Below, in pieces: positions 1 through 63,623 of a DNA stretch of 64,000 nt; position 1 is the stretch's first letter; every line of letters starts with the position of its first letter. The translations under genes and the position numbers were made by a program. A model generated the notes under the pieces. That model did not search any database. It saw only the letters and a program-made list of their open reading frames with translations, and was not told the origin of the DNA. Source of the stretch: Podarcis liolepis (lineage: Eukaryota); NCBI GenBank assembly GCA_965112155.1, contig OZ218098.1, one strand, 5' to 3'.

Positions 1-1680
1 TGTTGTTGTTTTTTCAAATGCAGAGTGCTGTTGTAACTTGACTAATGAAAACAGTTCCCCATGAATATTAAATAAGTAAGTAGAGGCCATGGAAGAACTG
101 GGCCTGGGTCCAACGTGTGTGTGTGTGTGTGTTTCTGAAGAATCCAAGTATGTAATAGCACTTCTAAGCTTAACCATCCAACCAACCATGGCAGCCGATA
201 TGTTCTGTGTAAACTTATTATTACAGGACCTTTAGAAGGAGGCTCTGCTTTAGTACAGAGCTTTATGGGGTGGGGGGGATGAATGGAGAGCTGATAGAAT
301 TTTACATGCAGGGCTGCGTGAGTGCAGGAAAGCCACAGTAAGCTAGTGGGCACCAAACCCAGGTTCTTGAGAATCTCAGCTTTTGTTTATCTTTCTCCAT
401 TTTAAAAAGAAAGTCTTTAGCCCTTATAGTCATGAATATACACTTGAAAGAGTGCAGTGCTAACTAGGGGTGGTGGCAGGGGATTTCTTGCCAACTCTAC
501 AGCCCTGCTGGCCAGGGTGGAACGTGGGTGGAGGTGATGGTAGTTCTCCACTGTCTTGTGGTGCCAACTCTAGGCTAGTGAAGCAGAGGGGCCCGGATTA
601 AACCCTTTACTAGGAAATGGGATGGCTTTTTATCCTATCCATGACTTATGACAACTTCTGTCAGCAGCAACACTGCTGGTGGGCAGGGTGTGCTCTTCTT
701 TCCACCGTCACAGATCAGGAGTTAGCATTGCTCTGACGATATGTGAGCAAAGTCTGCAGAAACACCGTAAAACTGAATCGGGTGTTGAATTTCTAGTGTG
801 GTGGAGGTTGACGCTACAGTCTCGGGGAGAATCTGCTGTGGATTTTCAATGTACATGTAGGTTTGCTCTCTGTGAAGCTCGAGAAAATCCCCGTTAAAGT
901 GTTGGATATGCTTGTGTGGAACTCAGTTGTGTAGGCAGATACAAGATGAAGCCAAAGAACATTGGTGTTAACGTTTCCCGCCTTTCATGCAACATGTAGC
1001 TCTTTGGATGAGTGACACTTGGCAAGAAACTGACAGCTAGAGAGTTTATTCCGAAAGAATGTATGGCTTTGCTAGGACCTAAAGTACCACAGCAGTGATT
1101 AAGTGATTACTCCAGACATCATGCATTGATGGAGTGCCAAGACCTGACAGGTGCCAGGTTGTAATCACAATGTAAACAGCTGCTAAACTAGCACATCTTC
1201 GCTTGTTGTTGCAAAGATGTCAGTTTTCTTAGTGCATCTATTAACCTCAGAAAAAGCAGAAGGACAGGTGCTCGAGAGGATGCAGAAATACCGGGAATTA
1301 CTGTATTACAATCCTTTTCTCATAGCATAAAGGCCTTTGAGTTTGTTACACAACTGAATAAAAATAATCCAACTGAATCTAGATCTGTTGTATAACGCAC
1401 CAGTTAACAGTTCTACTGAAATGTCTTCTAACCTTTCCAACTATGATTCCATGGTATAATATGAAGTTAACTTTGTTAATTGGTTCATGATACTAATATG
1501 AACATTTTGCAGCAACTGAAATGCTAATGCAAGACTTGGTGGTTGCTGCTGCTGCTGTTATTATTTTGTTGTGCTGTTGTCATTATCAGTAATGAGACTG
1601 CTTGCGTATCTTCACAGGTGATGGCAGAGAACGGATGGAAAATCAGTTTTTGTTAATAGCCAAATATCTTCTCTTTGCAG

Positions 1681-3349: not shown

Positions 3350-6349
3350 GTAGGTTGCTCTTGTTTCATCAGAGATTGCCATGTGCCTTGCACAGCTGCT
3401 TTGGATAAGGTCTGCCGGAGCTCAGCGGCTCATCTTTATTTCATGAGGCCCAGCCTGAGACTAATGTAGCTGTTCATACATGTGCATCATGGGGACACAT
3501 TTCAGCATGCTTATCTCACGCCGCTTCTAGTGTGGTGAACATTAGCCTCCATGTGCAAATTAGTTTGTGACACTAGTTCACACTGAATCTAGAAGCAGGA
3601 TCCTAATTAATGTCAGATCGCCGTGGTTCATAATACATAGTATCAGCATCAAGCTTTTATTTCGGTCGCAGACCAGCATAAGATAAAACTTACGGATAAA
3701 GTGAACACTTAAGACTTAAAACAGGTAAGGGGTAAAAACTGGTAGTTAGAAGGTGATTATATCATACATAACTTAAAAAGATAAAAACAAGGACAAATGG
3801 TTAAAAGCGGCTATAAGGGAGGGAGTGTGAAGGAGCACAGGTCTTGCATTTTGGGACTATAATACAAAACATTGGCTCACAGCCCCCTGCAATGCAGGAT
3901 TATGCAGCTGTCCCATATGGTGATCTAACTTGCAACCTTGGCCATTATCAGCACCATGCTCCAACTGAGCCAGACCCTACAATTCCATGACTCTAAGCAG
4001 TCTTATCTATTTCTCCAACCTTGCAAATAAAATCCTTGACCCATCTGACTGATCTTTCCTCTGCACTTCTCCCTACCTCTCCCTCCCCCCTCCTTTCTTT
4101 CCACCTCCCTCTCCCTTATTTTGCCCCACTTCCTTCACTGGTAGGGGTTTTATTTTCAAAACAAGCCAACATGTTTTGCCCCACTGTTGTTTAAAAACCT
4201 TCAGAGGTCAAATTGACAAAAACAGCCCACAGAGTTCTCTGGTAAATAATCTCTCTCATTCACATTAGCTGTCGCCAGTTAAATGATAATTGGCCAAAAC
4301 ACATTGGGCTGTTTTGTATATAAAATCCACACATTTTTAGCACATTGAGTTACGTTTCTTTTAATTCGGGGGTCTGTAGTCCAGAAACATCTGGAGGGCC
4401 CCAGTTTCCCCATCCCAGGTCTAAATAGATCAACCTAATTAGCAGGTAACATTGTGAAACATATACTTTACCATTTTATTATTACATTTTCTGTAGAATT
4501 GTGAACTTGGAAGCCCTCTATGGAGATAGTAGTAGGACATTGACTGGTCCATAGATGGCTGTGGAGTCACAGAGAAGCATGAGGGATGTAGTAGTATGAG
4601 TAACCCCCCCCCCCAATGTCACCAGTGCTTTTGGAGTAAGAAATGGAAATACCTGGAAAATACACACGAAAACATTAAACAGCATGATGTCCAGTGGAAC
4701 TGTGACTGAACTTGAGCAGCTGCTGACAGAGCAGGATGCTTCCCCAGCTCTCTTACATCCATCCAAGAAATACACATTTAACATTTATTTCCTCCATTTT
4801 TATCCCTCTCTTCGAACTCGAAGGGTTCCCAGAACTGCATGCAAATGAGAGGTTAAACCAAGAATAAATGCACTAAATAATTATAGTGTGTAGTTATTAT
4901 AGGGTATAGTAATAGGCAATAATTTTGAATGGGCAGAACAGTAAAACCAACTATTAAAGCCAGAGCCAAGTTAAGTTTAAGACTGTTAAAACAGCGGCTA
5001 AAAAAAAAATAAAAAATTAAAGTCATAAATGCAGGCCAAACTTCACCCACACCCACACCACTCAATCCAGGATCATTTCAAAAATGGAGGGTAAGCTAGA
5101 GTCTTCAGTCTAAGGAGGAAGTACTCTGTGACAAGCTCCTGTCAAATTGCCTTTTAAGAATGAAGACAGAAGCTGCTCATTCCCTTTTGTGGGACAGAGA
5201 GGTCTGAGCTAGGTAGGGAATATATGAATTGGTGAGTGGAAAGGAGGTGTGTGTTTGAGGCTGTGCCTGAATGCTGTGGGGAGGAGGTATAAGAGGCGAA
5301 TGTACGAGAGACATTAGAGTTCTTCTCTGCTGCTGTTTGTTGTTTCCATTGGGGGCAGAAGGACCTCCTGTGATCTCATTAGCGAATTGTGACAAAGGCT
5401 TGAATCTGCAGCATATTTCCATGTACCAGCTCATTTTTAAAATACACATACACACACACTTGGTTGTTGCTAAGTTCAGGCAGCAGTGCATAAGGAATAC
5501 ATTCCTTTTGGAATGCATCTGAGAACCGAGCTGTCGTGGTTCATTTAAAAATAATGATTCACCTGTTTGAAAGGATATAGAAGAGCCTTTGGCACTAAAG
5601 GGATTTTTTTGTGCTTTCTGTTTTGTCTGCTCTTGTTTCCTATACTGTTCTTTCATTTTAGTGTAATCCTCACCATATCTACGCAGACATTATTCACACT
5701 GTATTCAATGGGTCTTTCTCCCAGGGGAGTGGAATTAGGATTGTAGCCTTAGTTGTCCTTGAGAAGAGCTATGCTTCATCCAGTTTGAATATCAGCATGC
5801 TCTTTCCCCCAGTTCCAGGCTTAATAAATGACATTCATTACAATCCCAGCACATTGTTTGGCCACTGTGTGTCAAAAGAAAGTTCCTCTGCACTACATTA
5901 AAATGATATATGAAGGTCTGTTATCTGATATTTATGAGCAGCTAAATGGGACAGGAAGTCAGGCAGACATATTGAGCTGGTTCCAGTAGTTTAATCTAGT
6001 TTAATCCAGCCTCTGAAACATCCTGGGATACCAAGTTTACAGATATATTGCAGTTACATTAAAACTGGAGTATGGGTTGATCTTCATTTTTTTTAATTTA
6101 ATTTTTATCATTATTATTTTGTACAGAACAACTCTTCTGAAGAGAAGCTATACAATATAAATGGATGGCTGAGTCGGGTTTGTTAGCATTCTCTTCAGTT
6201 TAAGGGAGGCTGTATTTCTCTCTTTGTGTTATATGGGATCAAATTTGGTTTTATTTATAAGAAATGAATTGTAGTTACCATCCGTCATGCAATAAATTGT
6301 CCGACAGTCATATTTCAGACTTAACTCTCCCCCCCCTTCCAAGTTGGCT

Positions 6350-34320: not shown

Positions 34321-35163
34321 GTAAGTAAGGGGAAATCTACCCCCAGTGGACTTGAAAGTAGCTTTGCTTGGAAGATTGTTTGCACATCCCCATTTATTTG
34401 CATGGCCTGTATGAACAACAGTGGTTTAAGCATCCTTTTAGTGAGTTGTCAATGAGCTAGGGAAGGAATGGAGCCATTGGCTTAGTTTTCTAATGTCATA
34501 TTGTCAAGACAAAGGTAAATTTCAGTTCCCCATAACTTCATTTCCCTCCCCTGGTTAAACTCTTCCTTACCACTAACTGCATCAGGTAGACCTCCTGTAC
34601 AGATTTGCAATGGCTGAGAAGTCTGTTTAGCACTGCCCTGTCTTTTCTGCCAGTTCTAGTTATGAGTCTCTCCACTTTCTGGATAATAGCATTGGGCCAT
34701 TCATAAAAGCAATATGTGATGGACCCTGTTGCTAGGGGTGGGGAATGAATGCCTCTAATGACCTGTAATAAACAATAATTACCAGCGCTATGAAAATACA
34801 CCGGACAGATTTAATAAGATGACAACCTCGATTGCTTTAATGGCCTATAGTTTTCCGGATTCAGATTATTCTTTTACTTGTGGTCGTCTTCTGACAATAT
34901 GATGAATTATCATGTTTAAGTAACATAAATAAATACAAAACTATGGGCAACAATTGGAGGGGTCCTAAAATCCTTTACCTGTGGTCCTCCATGTTATTGG
35001 ACCTCAGTTCCCATTAACATGGCGAATGATGAGGGATGATGAGAGTTCTGGTGCAACATCATCTCAAGAGTCACATGTTCCCCTCCCCTGACCTGTAACA
35101 TTCATACAGGGCTATGATATCTTCATTGCATTGCACTTACTTCATTGTGTCATGTGTCTATTT

Positions 35164-35275
35164 CAGGGTGGCTAACCAGTGACCCTCCAGATGTTGTGGA
35201 CTCCAACTCCCATCAGCCCCAGGGGTGGTGGGATTGTAACTCAGCCACATCTGGAGAGTTATAGCTTTTCCACCC
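35164..35275. mobile_element. Degenerate hAT-type MITE (similar copies near 4370, 8165, 34970, 38935, 53440, 58700)
   Basis: shared core CCTCCAGATGTTG-GGACT-CAACTCCCATCA...CATCTGGAG. Confidence 0.6.
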
Positions 35276-35372
35276 TTGGTATATAGGCAGATCATGGGTT
35301 GGCTGCTAAGGAAAGTTAACTCAAGGATGTTGAAGCTGAATCTAACATACTTCTTTTGCCTCTTCTTTGCAG

Positions 35373-35502
35373 TTACTAGACACAAAATCGACAGACAGGA
35401 AACAAACTCTATTGCACTATATATCAAATGTTGTGAGAGAGAAATATCAGCAAGTATCGCTTTTTTACAATGAGCTTCACTATGTGGAGAAAGCTGCTGC
35501 AG
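35373..35502 (+). CDS. FMNL2: FMNL2 coding exon (~exon 21, FH2)
   Basis: ttgcag|TTA CTA...GCT GCA G|gtaaca; 130 nt; [43 protein letters not shown]. Confidence 0.95.
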
Positions 35503-36459
35503 GTAACATAGCCACACACTCATTTCCCAAGTACTTAAAAGCAGGTTCAGATATGTTCTGTGGATACTGTAATACAGTAATGCACCCATGTCCTAGGGAA
35601 AGCTACCTGTTTGGAAAAGATACCACCTTGCAGAAGACAGGTGGGCATCTTAAATGTTATGGGCACAATAGGATACAGAAGCATCATAATTTTCAAATGC
35701 CTTCTTGGTTCTTCTAGCACACTGTTCCCTAAAGCTGACAGGAGCCTTTCCTCTTTTCAGTAATTGGGCTTCCTTCATTGCTCCCACACAGTTTGTGTAA
35801 AGTCCTTAACTTCAGGTGCAAGAGGTGCACATCCTGTTGGAAGGCACGTCTTGTAAATGTTGTGTGAACATACTGAACAGAAAGGATCCTTCCGACTGAA
35901 ATCTTTATATGTACAGAAATCTTTACTTGGAAGGGGTAGCGAGGCCCTGCCCACCTGCCAAAATGGCCCACGAGAGGTGTAGGAGGTCAGATCCTATTCT
36001 CCTCCTCTGTTCTGCATGGTCAGGGTAGAAACTGTATAGGAGGCATCAGCCCTACTGGAGCATGTGCATCTATATTGTAAAGGTGGTTTAAAACAATACC
36101 TTCCCTGAACTACTCACCTTCCCTTTTGTTTGATGCATCTGCCCCCAATCCCATCTCATTCCTAGCCTTTCTGTTTCGTTCCAGTTTTGTCTCTTGGATG
36201 CAAAATATAAGCTCGCTGGCCTGCAGTTCTGTCTTGTGTGTGTGAGAGAGACCCTCCATTGTTGGCTTCTCAATTTTAATAGTAGTAGCAGGAACAACAA
36301 CCACATGTTAACAGAGATTCGCCAATTAAAACTATCCAGGGTCTCAGGCAGCTATATCGCCAGGCTTTGCTACATGAGATCTGTCAAACTGGAGATGTTA
36401 GGGATCAATTAGGCAATGCGTAGTAACATTTTGAATGTCTTTCCCCTTCCACCCTTTAG

Positions 36460-36623
36460 TATCCCTTGAAAATGTTCTGTTGGATGTAAAGGAACTCCAA
36501 AGAGGTCTCGACTTAACGAAGCGAGAGTACACCATGCACGATCACAACACCATGCTGAAGGAGTTTATTCAGAACAATGAAGGGAAACTGAAGAAGCTGC
36601 AGGATGATGCAAAAATAGCTCAG
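36460..36623 (+). CDS. FMNL2: FMNL2 coding exon (~exon 22, FH2)
   Basis: ctttag|TA TCC...GCT CAG|gtattc; 164 nt; [55 protein letters not shown]. Confidence 0.95.
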
Positions 36624-37006
36624 GTATTCTGTGTATCCCAGCAGTTGTTCAGTGGTCTAGCTTTCAGGAACGGAGAACTTTTGTTACCTTTTTCAAGCTC
36701 AAAGATGTTCCTTTAGGAGTAGGCAGGACAAGTATTCACTGATTCCGCTGTTCTAGTGTAGTGTTGTGTTGTATAGTTAAGTGTGTCCAAATGAGTGAGC
36801 TTAGGCCAGTCATTCCCCCTCAGGGGGAATAGAAAGGGAACAATAAATGCTTCTCTGTCTGCTTGAAGAAGGAAGGGTGGTTGAAAAAAACAATAGAATG
36901 TGTTTATTCTTTTGCAGTATTGATGTGACATCTGTCACTGAGAGTGACTTCACACCTTATGCAATAGCATTTCATTCAGTGGCATGTGCAATCATGCACC
37001 CTTAAA

Positions 37007-37008
<2 letters not shown>

Positions 37009-37090
<82 letters not shown>
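37009..37090. repeat. (CT)n microsatellite
   Basis: read directly. Confidence 0.95.
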
Positions 37091-37609
37091 ACACAGCTAT
37101 TTTCCAGGGGAAACACACAGATACTTAATGTTTACTAGCTCCACTCAAGTTTCATTATTTATTTTCTTGGTTAAAATAATAATGGTAGAAAGAAACAAGT
37201 TTCTTCCTTTTATCTGTTCTGAATCTGCAAAAGGCAAAAATGGTTAAGTAATCCCAGGACAAGAGGGCAATTAACAGCAGTACATGGCAGAACTTCAAAA
37301 TGCATATTTTCAAACTGCAAGTTTATACTTGGAACTGGGATTTTTCTTGCTTCCTAAGGAAAGACCTGAAATTGCGCACTTTGCAAAACAGGTTGCAGAG
37401 CAGGCCTCCCTTCTGTTGCACTGGTAATAAAGGCTCCAGTGCACCTACCCTCTTGTCTCTGCTGCTTCCTTCCTGATTCCTTGCCACCTGATCAGCCTTC
37501 CGCTTGTAGGGAGTGGTTCCCTTTTCGTGGGTTAAACACCATCTTGCATAGTTTGGGATTTGTTGAAATGAAATATATATATATATGTTAATAAGTCTCT
37601 CTTTTACAG

Positions 37610-37711
37610 GATGCGTTTGATGATGCTGTGAAGTATTTTGGAGAGAATCCCAAGACAACACCTCCATCAGTCTTCTTCCCAGTCTTTGTTCGATTTGTGA
37701 AAGCTTACAAG
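37610..37711 (+). CDS. FMNL2: FMNL2 coding exon (~exon 23, FH2)
   Basis: ttacag|GAT GCG...TAC AAG|gtaaac; 102 nt; [34 protein letters not shown]. Confidence 0.95.
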
Positions 37712-37721
37712 GTAAACAGAA

Positions 37722-37963
37722 CAGATAGGTAGCCGTGTTGGTCTGCCATAGTCAAAATAAAAAAATTCCTTCCAGTAGCACCTTAAAGACCAACTAAGTT
37801 AGTTCTTGGTATGAGCTTTCGTGTGCATGCACACTTCTTCAGATACTTCTTCAGTTACTTCTTCAGGTATCTGAAGAAGTGTGCATGCACACGAAAGCTC
37901 ATACCAAGAACTAACTTAGTTGGTCTTTAAGATGCTACTGGAAGGAATTTTTTTATTTTGACT
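37722..37963. mobile_element. Penelope-like element remnant (inverted terminal repeat foldback)
   Basis: 97-bp inverted arms 37750-37846 and 37867-37963 (1 mismatch); flanked by the 13-bp direct repeat AAGGTAAACAGAA; same family as 62806-62980. Confidence 0.75.
37867..37904 (+). ncRNA. Minimal type I hammerhead ribozyme motif (Penelope-type)
   Basis: GUAU-CUGAAGA-A-GUGUGC(AU)GCACAC-GAA-AGCU-C-AUAC: stem I, CUGANGA core, stem II, GAAA, palindromic stem III, NUH site; mirror copy on minus at 37809-37846. Confidence 0.7.
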
Positions 37964-38069
37964 AAGGTAAACAGAAGTTCAGTTCACTTCTGTTATTCTT
38001 ACAAATGTGGCCACACTTTCTAACCAAAGGCTTCCGCTGTGGTTTTGTAGTTTCCTTAGCAAATACACA

Positions 38070-38195
38070 GATAACTCAGTCAGTAGAGCATGGGACAGTT
38101 AATCACAGGGTTGTGGGTTTGAGCCCCATGTTGAGTGAAAGATTCCTGCATCGCAAGGGGTTTATGATCCTTGTGGTCCCTTCAATATGATTTAT
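38070..38195 (+). mobile_element. tRNA-derived SINE with CR1-like tail (Squam3-like)
   Basis: A/B-box head TAACTCAGTCAGTAGAGCA...GGTTTGAGCCCC, then TTCCTGCATCGCAAGGGG tail; tail-only copies near 29041-29100, 33092-33158, 54170-54222. Confidence 0.6.
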
Positions 38196-38744
38196 ATGAA
38201 AGAGCCTTAAGGTTCCATCTTTGGGAAACGTGTCCCAGAACAAAAGCCAGATTAAAACTTGCCCAACCTCTTGGGGGCTGCATTCAAATGATGGCTGGGG
38301 CAAAATGAAACAAAATCCAACAGAGGAAAAGAGAAGACAAACGCACACCAGACATCAGGAACACACAGCACTCCTGCTGTGTTACACACATTCAGACATG
38401 CAGAGGACATGAAGGCAGGTACACATGTGGCTGGAAAAATCTGCCATTAGGTGACTTCAAAAGAGAGAGGGAATAAGGCCGTCGGTCACTCCCAGCCATG
38501 ATGGTTATGCTCTCCACTGTCGGAGGCAGTATGCCTTTGAATGACAGCTGCTGGGAATCACAAGAGGACAAATTCTTAAAGAAATTCTTGGAAGAATTTG
38601 CCATACAACAGGAAGCGGCACATCAAAGTTAAACTGGCTTTAATGAATTTGTATTTTGCTGAGTGAGCTAAAAATGAACCCCATTTTTTTGAAGTTGTTG
38701 CGAGCTCTAACGGGTGTGTGTATTTCGTTTAAAATTGTCGATAG

Positions 38745-38843
38745 CAAGCGGAAGAGGAGAACGAGTTGAGAAAAAAGCAACAGCAGGCATTGATGGAAAA
38801 ACTTCTGGAGCAGGAGGCACTGATGGAGCAGCAAGACCAAAAG
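38745..38843 (+). CDS. FMNL2: FMNL2 coding exon (~exon 24)
   Basis: cgatag|CAA GCG...CAA AAG|gtagca; 99 nt; [33 protein letters not shown]. Confidence 0.93.
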
Positions 38844-39533
38844 GTAGCAAACAACCAAGCCATTAATCGATTTTGGTTACGTGCATTGATAAAGTGGCAC
38901 ATATTGGTCCAGTGAAAGAGATCGTCTTATTGCAGAGCAGCCGATGTGGTGCAGTCCAGATATTATTGAACTACAGTTGTTAGGGATGATGGGAGTGGTG
39001 GAATACACATCTGGAAAGCACCACCTTGGCTACTGCTGCCTTCTTGGCTGAGACTGCTTCTCTCAAGTCTTTGGGATCGGCAAGGAACCAACATTCCAAA
39101 CACCTTTCTGTCAGGTGTTTTCTCTCAGAGATAACTATTGAAGCTTTCTTTCTCACAGAGACATTTTAACAAGGCAGTCATATAAGAAACTTAAAAGGAA
39201 ACTAGAGCAGTTTCATGTGTATGCTATTTCCTGTTCTTCCTAAATCTCAGAAAGGTGTTTATTCTCCTAAAGCCATTGATACAATGCTTGGAATTTGCCC
39301 TGTTTGAAAGATGCTTACCGAGAAGTAATGAGCATTTATCTCGGCCAAGCAATTCGATAACAGGAAGACATTCAGCGCATAGTCACCCAAGAGTCTGCAG
39401 TGACCAAATGTGAAGGAAGGCTAGTCGGAAGAGGCTCAAAGAAAACGCAGTGGCAGAAATGGCCATTTTGGGTTGTATCTAGCATTTTCCAGAGTTCTGC
39501 TTGGCATATGAGACCCTCTCTTCCATTATAATA

Positions 39534-39867
39534 CAGTGGTGCCTCGCAAGACGAAAAGAATCCGTTCTGTGATTCTCTTCGTCTAGCGGTTTTTTCGTCT
39601 TGTGAAGCAAGCCCATTGAAGGATTAGCGGATTAGCGCTATTAGCGGCTTTTAGCGGCTTATCTGCTGATCGGATCAGCTGATAAGCGGCTTAGCGGCTT
39701 AGAAAAAGGGGGGGAGGGGAAAAAACCAGCAGGAACTCGCAAGACATTGTCGTCTTGCGAAGCAAGCCCACAGGAAATTCGTTTTGCGAAGCACCTCCAA
39801 AACGGAAAACTCTTTCGTCTAGCGAGTTTTCCATCTTGCGAGGCATTCGTCTTGCGGGGCACCACTG
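39534..39867. mobile_element. Tc1/mariner MITE, family B
   Basis: TIR CAGTGGTGCCTCGCAAGACGAA...TTCGTCTTGCGGGGCACCACTG; TA TSD; internal TTAGCGG repeats. Confidence 0.9.
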
Positions 39868-40612
39868 TATCTTTTAACAATACAATTAGGAATTCTCACT
39901 ATGCAAGGTCAGGCTACACAAAGTGACTTCTCCAGATATTTGCACAAAGCACCCCCACCTCCTGTAATGTCAGGATTGTGTTCCCCACTTTTCCAGTGTC
40001 TCGGCCCTCATGGCACTTTACAATTGCCATTGATATTGTGTAGAACAATAAAAAAGAAATAACAAAAACAAAAACCATCAGCACGACAGTGTATAAATCA
40101 CAAAAAGTAGCTAAAAGCAGATTAAGTGTTAGTATGTGACAAACAAGACAGACCGCACTTGACATCTGAACAGTAATAATCATGGTGCCAGATGGGTATG
40201 CCTGGGGATGGCAATCCATAATCAGGGAGCCACCACAGGAAAGGCCCTTATTTTGATTAACCTCAGAAGGCCAGGACCCTCTGAGACAGGCCTCAAATGT
40301 TGTTCTCTCAGCCGAGAGTTTGGTGTGCGAAAAGGTGGTCTTGTAGATACTCTGATCCCAAACTTTTCAATGTTTCATAGGTTAGAACCATAACTTCCCT
40401 CCCCCCCCCCTAAAAGTGAACTGGGAGTTAGTGAAAGTGAGTGCAGGTGAAAAATGTGTAGGGCTGGGGAAAGAAAGACAGGGTTGACCTAGTGGTTCTA
40501 ACTCTGTACGGGGCAGGTACCTAAGTTCCCTATCTTACACCTCAAAGAGAAGAGCAGGTGTTTTCAGCATCTTGTTGGCCACTGCTTTTTACCAACCTTT
40601 GCTGCCTTTCAG

Positions 40613-40736
40613 TCTCCGTCTCATAAAACGAAGAGGCAGCAGCAAGAGCTGATTGCAGAGTTAAGACGGCGACAAGTCAAGGACAATAGACATGTGTACG
40701 AGGGGAAGGATGGAGCTATCGAAGATATCATCACAG
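40613..40736 (+). CDS. FMNL2: FMNL2 coding exon (~exon 25, WH2-like/DAD)
   Basis: tttcag|TCT CCG...ATC ACA G|gtaaaa; 124 nt; [41 protein letters not shown]. Confidence 0.95.
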
Positions 40737-41996
40737 GTAAAATAATAATAATGAGGAGGAGGAAGAGGCTGTTCCAAAGTGCCCCTTCATAGCTTTTACT
40801 TTGCAAATCTCTAACAGAGCTCCTTAAAGTAATCAATAATCAATAAATTGATTTCAGTGAGAATAATCACATGTATCAGTCATTTAACAAATGGTGCACA
40901 TTATATAGCGCTCAGGGTTTCAGGCCTCTTCTTTGGCAAGGCCTCGTTGACATAACGTTTGTGTATTATTTAATTTCTCCTTCACTTCAGCATGCTCTCA
41001 TAACTCAAGCTGTAGACCACGTAGAGCCTTATTAGACGTATTTTTGCAACAGGTGCATGCCTTGTAAATCTTTGAGTATTTTTGATCCATGTGCAAAACC
41101 ACTGGTGTTGAGCCTTGCTTTTAAAAGCTCTTGTTTTGTCCTTCAAGTCCTACTAATGGTAATTGCTCCAGCATTAAGTATGCGATGGAGGACAAAATTG
41201 TGTGATTTGGATTTGTTGAACGATTTTGAACTTCAGAGCTGCATATTCCTCTTGCAACAGACTAATACTAGTCCCTTTCGGCAATCCATAATTGAACGCA
41301 ATAGGCTGACAATGGCTGGGTCTAATTTATAGCAGCTGTGACAAGTACAGTGTGGGCTTTGGTGATTTTGCCAAAATCTGATTTAGTGGCTTCTGTGACA
41401 ATCACAGAGTGGATGAAAACAGCAGCAGCAGCAGCAGCTAATTGTTAATAATTTCTCCATAATCATTAGTAATAGGTCCCTGAGTATGAGTAATACCAAA
41501 TGCAAGCAACAAATACGGTGGGTTTTAAAAACATCCATGCACAGATGCATGGATCCTATCCAGCCAGGACTTCACTAGCATCACATGTCTCATTTTCAAT
41601 GGTAAATTTATGGCTGATTCCTGGCTGAGACTTCGCCTAGGGTTTACTTTACCCACTCTGCTGTTGTGTGATTTCATTTCACTAAGTTCCAAGAGCAGTC
41701 CATCAGAGTGCGAGAACAGCCATGCAAATAAATGTTGTGCTGAGATAAAAGTGTGCACTTCATCATGCCCTTGTTCATACACCAATTTTACCTTTAACCC
41801 CCCCCCCCCAGTAACTGTTATGATTTGCAGAAAGATAATTCTACTGGTAACCCAGCCAAGCAAATCCTATTGTGGTTAAATGACTGAATAAGCCACCTCA
41901 GGGTGTCTTTAACAAATCACTAACAATGTACTAAGACAATAGATCTTTGCTTCTTACTGTATATTCTGTCTTGTCTGGCTGTTATTTTCCATGCAG

Positions 41997-62805: not shown

Positions 62806-62980
62806 ACAGATTCAGGTAGGTAGCCATGCTGGTCTGATGCAGTCGAAATATATTTAAATATTGTCCAGTAGCACCTTAGAGACCAACTAAGTTTGTTCTT
62901 GGTATAAGCTTTCGTGTGCATGCACACTTCTTCAGATACACTGAAACAGAAGGTGCTACTGGACAATTTTTTAATTTTTT
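62806..62980 (-). mobile_element. Penelope-like element remnant with a short inverted terminal segment
   Basis: close match to the 37.7 kb element; 18-bp inverted repeat 62860-62877 / 62950-62967; boundaries approximate. Confidence 0.7.
62902..62939 (-). ncRNA. Minimal type I hammerhead ribozyme motif (Penelope-type), sense to PRPF40A
   Basis: minus strand GUAU-CUGAAGA-A-GUGUGC(AU)GCACAC-GAA-AGCU-U-AUAC. Confidence 0.65.
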
Positions 62981-63623
62981 TAAACAGTTATCAGATTACT
63001 ATTAACACACCAATCTGGACTGCTTTGTTTCTTCCTATAGCATACAGAGGAAACAAACCACAATCTGATTGAAACATAGCACTAAGCCAGGGTTTGTCAT
63101 TTGCTTTGCCCTTAGTGCTAGTAAAGAGAAGCAAAGCATGCATGATTGGCTTGTATATGATTTAGCCTTTGTTTATGGCTTATCATGAGTAAATATGGCT
63201 AGTGTTGCATTCCTTATTTTCTAATTTTTTTTGATAGGGCGGTAAGCTAATTAAACATAGGGCTTTGTCCTTTTGATTCTGCAGTGATGTTTCATTAGTA
63301 ACATTTGGGATGTAATACCACTTAATAAAGCAACATCTGACTCTTCAGAGTGAGAATTTACAAAGAGTAAGCAGATAATTGAAGTTTTTAAACACAACCG
63401 TTTTTCCTTCTCTTCATTCCACCCCCGCCCCCCCCCCCCGGGCCAATTCTGCAAATGTGGAACTGTTGTGCCACCAGAATGCTCTTTTCACATAAAAATT
63501 TCATTTGTCTTTCCTTCTTTGGTCTCACTGCCCCCCCCCCCGCAAAAGACCTAAACAAATGTAAGAATTTTTCACCAATACTGGAGCATGATGTGAAAGT
63601 TTATACCAAGTACATTTTGGCTA

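Follow-up and report, generated by a model that had tools for sequence, protein, structure and literature searches.

A minimal hammerhead ribozyme motif lies in an intron of a formin-like gene of Podarcis liolepis, sense to the gene and beside its own antisense copy. This arrangement raises the question of whether the host pre-mRNA carries a self-silenced ribozyme, as a sequence-only reading of the locus had proposed, or whether both copies were left there by a transposable element. The locus was analyzed within a 64,000 nt stretch of contig OZ218098.1 (the window), and its features are collected in Table 1.

Table 1. Features of the FMNL intron locus, with positions in the window. Element positions take C3 of the hammerhead as 0.
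Feature	Position	Strand	Basis
FMNL-family (formin-like) coding exon, end of FH2 domain	37610..37711	+	translation; PDB match 4eah_A (FMNL3 FH2), E-value 2.2e-12
Left target-site duplication, 13 bp, holding the 5' splice site of the exon (GT at 37712)	37709..37721	+	repeat analysis; empty site
Left arm: PLE pseudo-LTR fragment, element positions -4 to about +120, with 3' tail	37722..37846	-	repeat and arm alignment
Second minimal hammerhead copy, exact complement (antisense in FMNL pre-mRNA)	37809-37846	-	sequence, pattern search
Junction filler, 20 nt, slipped copies of the core start; forms the hairpin loop	37847..37866	none	repeat analysis
Right arm: PLE pseudo-LTR fragment, element positions -4 to about +92, without tail	37867..37963	+	repeat and arm alignment
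Minimal type I hammerhead motif, whole	37867..37904	+	sequence, descriptor, sister-family comparison
Stem I 5' strand, GUAU	37867-70	+	read from sequence
Core, CUGAAGA	37871-77	+	read from sequence
Extra A	37878	+	between core and stem II
Stem II, GUGUGC-AU-GCACAC	37879-92	+	read from sequence
GAA	37893-95	+	between stem II and AGCU
Palindromic AGCU, in the place of stem III	37896-99	+	read from sequence
C17, predicted cut after it	37900	+	read from sequence
Stem I 3' strand, AUAC	37901-04	+	read from sequence
Right target-site duplication, 13 bp, an exact second splice donor (GT at 37967)	37964..37976	+	repeat analysis

Identification of the hammerhead motif

The motif sequence and numbering given in the earlier reading were correct base by base, and the upstream copy is indeed its exact complement. 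A CUGANGA core, GAAA and an NUH cleavage triplet are present in type I order. Three further details fit the minimal hammerheads (min-HHRs) described by Cervera and De la Pena (2014; PMC4209133): an extra base between positions 9 and 10.1 (A37878), a G10.1-C11.1 pair (G37879-C37892) and a palindrome at 15.2-16.2 (the AGCU). Two stems need amendment. Stem II, a perfect 14-nt palindrome, has the reported sequence, but instead of six pairs around a 2-nt loop it is predicted to fold as 5 bp with a 4-nt loop. The four pairs reported for stem I stand, and a fifth (G37866-C37905) is added by the junction filler; the parent base at this position is T in most copies and G in 3 of 68.

A covariance-model or descriptor search, which had been suggested as a check, gave a divided result. 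A descriptor modelled on the features in PMC4209133, but drawn up after the motif had been seen, hit the window three times (37871 on the plus strand, 37842 and 62935 on the minus strand), each time in a copy of one repeat, and hit none of 100 Markov control sequences. Similarly, a pattern search for the motif had no match in any of 100 shuffles. The motif at 37867..37904 is not a chance match. In an Rfam scan of 35000-41000, by contrast, no hammerhead family was among the 22 matches up to E=10. The AGCU has no loop and forms no intramolecular stem III, which places the motif outside the canonical three-stem covariance models, and the lack of a match is expected because stem III is absent. Matches to Rfam miRNA families at the locus were rejected as generic long-hairpin matches below gathering scores.

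Structure of the insertion and its host exon

Judged by its predicted translation, the exon upstream of the motif belongs to the FMNL family. The earlier assignment to FMNL2 holds at family level, which takes in FMNL2 and FMNL1/3 alike. The motif begins 155 nt downstream of the end of this exon (37711), in agreement with the distance first reported. The whole insertion is 242 bp long (37722-37963) and consists of two back-to-back arms and a filler, flanked by a 13-bp duplication. The arms form a 106-nt inverted repeat (37741-37846 and 37867-37972) that is 96% complementary around a 20-nt loop, and the tail of the left arm contains the start of the element's long frame. Slipped fillers like the one found here were seen by eye at about 6 of the 22 short-pair junctions inspected.

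The insertion landed on the 5' splice site of the FMNL exon and duplicated it. An exact empty site, in which 37708 is joined straight to 37964, was found in both DNA-like runs of related organisms that were compared (one contig each, runs X18 and X17). The insertion is lineage-specific, because the orthologous site is empty in these two organisms. Elsewhere around the exon, the intron before it holds a long (CT)n microsatellite (about 37009-37090), and the intron with the motif holds a tRNA-derived SINE-like repeat (about 38062-38190) with a weak Rfam tRNA match (24.9 bits) and high read depth, which resembles the SINEs of squamates.

The motif belongs to an abundant Penelope-like element

A 35-mer of the motif has 11,579 exact copies (5,850 + 5,729) in the 1.57-Gb genome, while the reversed control has none. 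Longer copies extend upstream into a GIY-YIG frame. At locus L144 (G000:C8:51195000-51204000), a full-length unit of 3,019 nt carries the motif in both pseudo-LTRs and an open frame of 921 codons with matches to RVT_1 (E-value: 3.3e-12) and GIY-YIG (E-value: 3.2e-5), both above Pfam cut-offs. The frame has the order reverse transcriptase (RT) then GIY-YIG endonuclease, with a C-x4-C-x2-C linker between them, and its first Met is at +93, in the tail. The unit is arranged in partial tandem together with an inverted, 5'-truncated copy. These features bear out the Penelope origin that had been suggested for the motif: the family has the single RT/GIY-YIG frame, tandem pseudo-LTRs, inverted truncated copy, optional tail and target duplication of endonuclease-bearing (EN+) Penelope-like elements (PLEs), and on its predicted protein and architecture it is one. 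It is likely of the Neptune type, an assignment made from the linker motif rather than an RT tree; a CX2-5CxxC motif between RT and endonuclease is reported for Neptune but also for Nematis (PMC8557442). Neptune and Poseidon are listed as the widespread PLE groups of vertebrates (bioRxiv 10.64898/2026.07.22.740005).

Two sister families in the same genome retain the hammerhead core, while stems I and II are altered on both sides in 3 of 11 pairs. The covariation score of 0.291, taken from a small set of five hand-picked, related sequences of three families of this one genome, was not reached in any of 500 shuffles, and the number of changed pairs was matched in 52 of 500. Since the sister families keep the core and change the stems in a compensatory manner, the ribozyme fold is, on this comparison, under selection in the element lineage, and the type I anatomy proposed for the motif gains support.

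Several other copies and relatives were observed. The L144 hammerhead has U rather than C at position 17. So does the third copy in the window (about 62826-62985, minus strand); the insertion that carries it belongs to the same family, is more diverged, and combines a long left arm with a very short, inverted right one. Besides the main family, the genome holds two much rarer ones that bear a hammerhead (L160, L168, L159 (1496-1537)) with different stems I and II, and in L160 TATA- and initiator-like motifs stand directly before stem I. At L076 (G000:C1:2830071), the hammerhead between the stem I strands has apparently been deleted while the upstream pseudo-LTR sequence is kept.

Inverted pairs are the usual form of the family

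The antisense neighbour is not peculiar to the FMNL locus. Back-to-back cores at most 11 nt apart occur at 684 loci genome-wide, a count outside which the FMNL locus falls with its spacing of 28 nt. Arms were sampled as the first 100 of 13,176 matches to an anchor downstream of the ribozyme; this sample is non-random, covering the first 4.9 Mb of contig C1 and a single subfamily. Among the matches listed, an inverted partner was present upstream within the fetched flank for 72 of the 100 arms and in 44 of 72 insertions. Both arms had been sampled in 28 pairs. In 11 of these, both arms span the whole motif; target duplications measured 12-14 bp in 23, were shorter in 2 and were not found in 3. 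Many pair junctions are short palindromes or hairpins. An antisense neighbour is the ordinary insertion form of this family rather than a property of one locus. Transcription of either strand meets the antisense copy first because the arms lie back to back, and this copy would be a by-product of insertion rather than a selected lock. Earlier papers describe min-HHR pairs on opposite strands (PMC4209133) as well as inverted pseudo-LTRs of which one side carries a tail (PMC3846280, PMC8557442).

Predicted folding and effects on the host gene

The hairpin region of the locus is predicted to fold at -185.4 kcal/mol (z -28). In this context the probability of the hammerhead stems is near 0, and forcing the hammerhead would cost 63.8 kcal/mol. 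Sequestration by the left arm, the lock envisaged in the earlier reading, is thus predicted, but stem I is equally absent from the fold predicted for a natural family copy when no antisense arm is included. Two 40-mers would likewise favour a 14-bp duplex of the palindromic stem II (-37.2 kcal/mol) over a double hammerhead (-17.7 kcal/mol). Published results point the same way: a min-HHR monomer gave no cleavage and multimers cut weakly (PMC4209133), and an Anolis PLE hammerhead cut only with the element's protein, insertion being independent of cleavage (PMC11167929). Since such hammerheads need a dimer or a protein in any case, the left arm would not be the sole bar to cutting. The idea that upstream pseudo-LTR sequence switches the core on and off in a conserved way was rejected, as in this family the core is paired whether or not that sequence is present, and the pattern is lost in a sister family.

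On these models, the motif is likely buried in the 106-bp hairpin as an inert passenger of the intron rather than a gene switch. A host-relevant ribozyme in FMNL pre-mRNA that cuts once its hairpin is opened or edited is very improbable. Such a ribozyme would agree with the intact core and complement, with the sense orientation so close behind an exon, and with the compensatory changes that mark the motif as selected in the element family; the same arrangement is, however, common across the genome, the orthologous site is empty in two relatives, and both the energy needed to open the hairpin and the published behaviour of minimal PLE hammerheads, alone or paired, speak against it. A host-domesticated intronic ribozyme would be single-copy and conserved at its orthologous site, and the motif has thousands of copies and an empty site in 2 of 2 relatives. 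Gating by hairpin opening or editing, as first proposed, is unsupported.

Sequencing reads were also inspected. Run X23, from an organism whose DNA is without the insertion, had no pile-up of read ends listed at 37900/37901; its library looks tagmented, with an adapter that we take to be of the tagmentation type, and its reads on the element come from other copies, which leaves this result without weight. A>G and T>C differences in this run sit on the repeat within a multi-copy pile-up and are unreadable as editing. In run X10, which is RNA by guess, the flanking FMNL exons had no coverage.

The insertion might instead matter to the host through splicing or double-stranded RNA rather than catalysis. 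The splice donor is copied exactly over 13 nt, and splicing from the copy at 37967 would lengthen the exon by 255 nt; the predicted extension reads V-N-R-T-D-R-stop and so ends after six codons. ADAR acts on long hairpins within introns, and the one of 106 bp here might undergo editing. We regard such an effect as quite unlikely, given that the first donor remains intact, clear of the long stem, and that use of the second donor is a prediction.

The best explanation of the locus, in which we have considerable confidence, is that the motif is the hammerhead of an abundant PLE's pseudo-LTR, left behind by a lineage-limited 242-bp back-to-back insertion, predicted to be buried and likely never to cut the host pre-mRNA. 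This explanation builds directly on family membership, copy number, insertion boundaries, target duplication, the empty site and inverted pairs as the norm, and extends from these to inactivity at the locus and to the transcription start and double priming discussed below.

Arm ends and the proposed insertion mechanism

The ends of the 100 sampled arms bear on how the pairs arise. Their 3' ends are bimodal, with 49 at +78..95 (short) and 51 at +119..134 (long). The 28 inverted pairs comprise 26 of long with short, 2 of long with long and none of short with short (binomial p 1.5e-6). Of the 26 long/short pairs, 13 have a short arm whose 5' end lies 8 nt or more beyond that of the long arm, and 5 show the reverse. 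The short 3' end is also present in 16 of 28 solo arms, and is therefore a real start site rather than a copy endpoint.

The 5' ends show a cliff just before the ribozyme: 42 of the 100 lie at -8..-1 (17 of them at -6), 2 in -30..-9, 33 in all upstream of -8, and 25 at or downstream of the core. Exact matches counted across the genome number 13,170 for -4..+17, drop to 4,258 for -20..+1 and are then level at 4,201 for -25..-6, although part of this drop may come from upstream subfamily variation; an upstream variant is visible in a loose contig end of run X17. None of the 100 arms begins at +28..+31, around the cut site at +30, so the inserted copies would derive from uncleaved RNA; 3 of the 100 have their ends at +32/+33, no more than 3 nt from that site. 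Read against the TATA and initiator consensus motifs, the parent element shows a TATA-like box (one mismatch) from -37 and, 30 nt further on, an initiator-like A at -7. The most plausible reading of the cliff is that the element RNA has its 5' end there, though the promoter of D. virilis Penelope has been described as TATA-less (PMC2377424). Reverse transcription could also stall at a local hairpin that is predicted over -17..+9 and produce the same cliff. A splice acceptor at the cliff was ruled out, as the sequence beyond it, inspected by eye, is partner arm, filler or flank with no shared exon.

Taken together, the long/short pairing, the 5' cliff and the absence of cut-site ends suggest two independent reverse transcriptions of uncleaved RNA, one per cut strand. 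At the FMNL locus, the element's endonuclease would have made a 13-nt staggered cut at the splice donor of the exon, and from each of the cut strands a separate reverse transcription of uncleaved element RNA would have been primed, starting on one strand at the tail site (about +120) and on the other at an inner site (about +92). Both cDNAs would have been extended as far as the 5' end of the RNA, at the TATA/initiator-like start that lies 7 nt ahead of the ribozyme core, and their ends then joined by slippage-type end joining.

For rotifer PLEs, self-priming was inferred from palindromic junctions (PMC3846280), and the inverted arm here could also have arisen when one cDNA, or an antisense template, folded back on itself. 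The many palindromic or hairpin junctions of the family and the hairpin over -17..+9 accord with fold-back, as does the FMNL locus taken alone, where both arms end at -4. In 13 of 26 long/short pairs, however, each arm holds sequence absent from the other, and therefore neither can be a copy of its partner; the short 3' ends of solo arms mark a start site of their own. We consider fold-back unlikely, and the arm statistics appear to fit two independent primings better, with the two long/long pairs and the five pairs in which the long arm reaches further 5' counting against double priming. In its general form, double priming holds that a protein dimer primes both strands separately at two internal sites on uncleaved RNA whose capped 5' end is just before the hammerhead, and that the short cDNAs are joined head to head into MITE-like palindromes. 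Our confidence in this account is evenly balanced. If true, it would replace the self-priming model and would make the ribozyme the 5'-terminal part of the element transcript.

Comparison with known systems

By itself the FMNL locus matters little; it shows that a hammerhead paired with its complement in an intron may be no more than a common transposon remnant, and that intronic ribozyme calls of this kind in such genomes should be filtered. The insertion pattern of the family matters more, and near-identical copies with an open full-length frame make this family a good test substrate. MITE-like 'Chompy' repeats of crocodilians have reportedly been linked to PLEs. The motif, its home in PLE pseudo-LTRs, its occurrence in reptiles and the inverted architecture are already published. 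A literature survey, for which subscription journals, Repbase and Dfam were mostly outside scope, found nothing on this PLE family, on twin or double priming by PLEs or on palindromic PLE derivatives of squamates; the supplements of PMC4209133 and PMC11167929 may bear on these points.

The closest described motifs are the min-HHRs of metazoan PLE pseudo-LTRs (PMC4209133), which share a stem I of 4-5 bp, a long stem II, the extra base between 9 and 10.1, the G10.1-C11.1 pair and a palindrome replacing stem III. They too occur as thousands of dispersed copies with opposite-strand pairs, and were reported there in turtle and snakes. The copies of the FMNL locus are 20 nt apart rather than about 100-700 bp, one sequence dominates (the 11,579 identical copies) where that paper stresses variability, and stem II is a perfect palindrome, unlike the min-HHRs in the sections of the paper used here.

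Neptune-type EN+ PLEs (PMC8557442, PMC3846280) resemble the family in having an RT, a C-x4-C-x2-C linker and GIY-YIG, a partial tandem with an inverted 5'-truncated copy, a 30-40-bp tail on one arm, a frame that begins in the pseudo-LTR or tail, TATA-/Inr-like motifs in the pseudo-LTR and target duplications. These duplications are 12-13 bp here and 8-10 bp in the rotifer examples. Unlike those examples, many insertions of the present family are very short pairs of pseudo-LTR only. PMC3846280 does not settle how head-to-head inverted insertions form; the arm statistics here favour two primings over the self-priming proposed in that paper.

Poseidon_Ac (PAc) of Anolis carolinensis (Frangieh et al., 2024; PMC11167929) likewise has a hammerhead near the start of its frame. 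It belongs to the Poseidon clade, whereas the family described here has a Zn-finger-like linker motif, and its start codon is at stem II rather than at +93 in the tail. Inverted insertions and a 5'-end hotspot, both found here, are not discussed in the consulted sections of that paper on PAc. The PAc protein cuts and extends both target strands, ribozyme cleavage is unneeded for insertion, and two internal reverse-transcription start sites bracket the tail in vitro, matching the bimodal 3' ends reported here. The long/short pairing in 26 of 28 pairs, the sharp 5' cliff and the lack of cut-site starts thus provide testable predictions for the PAc in vitro system.
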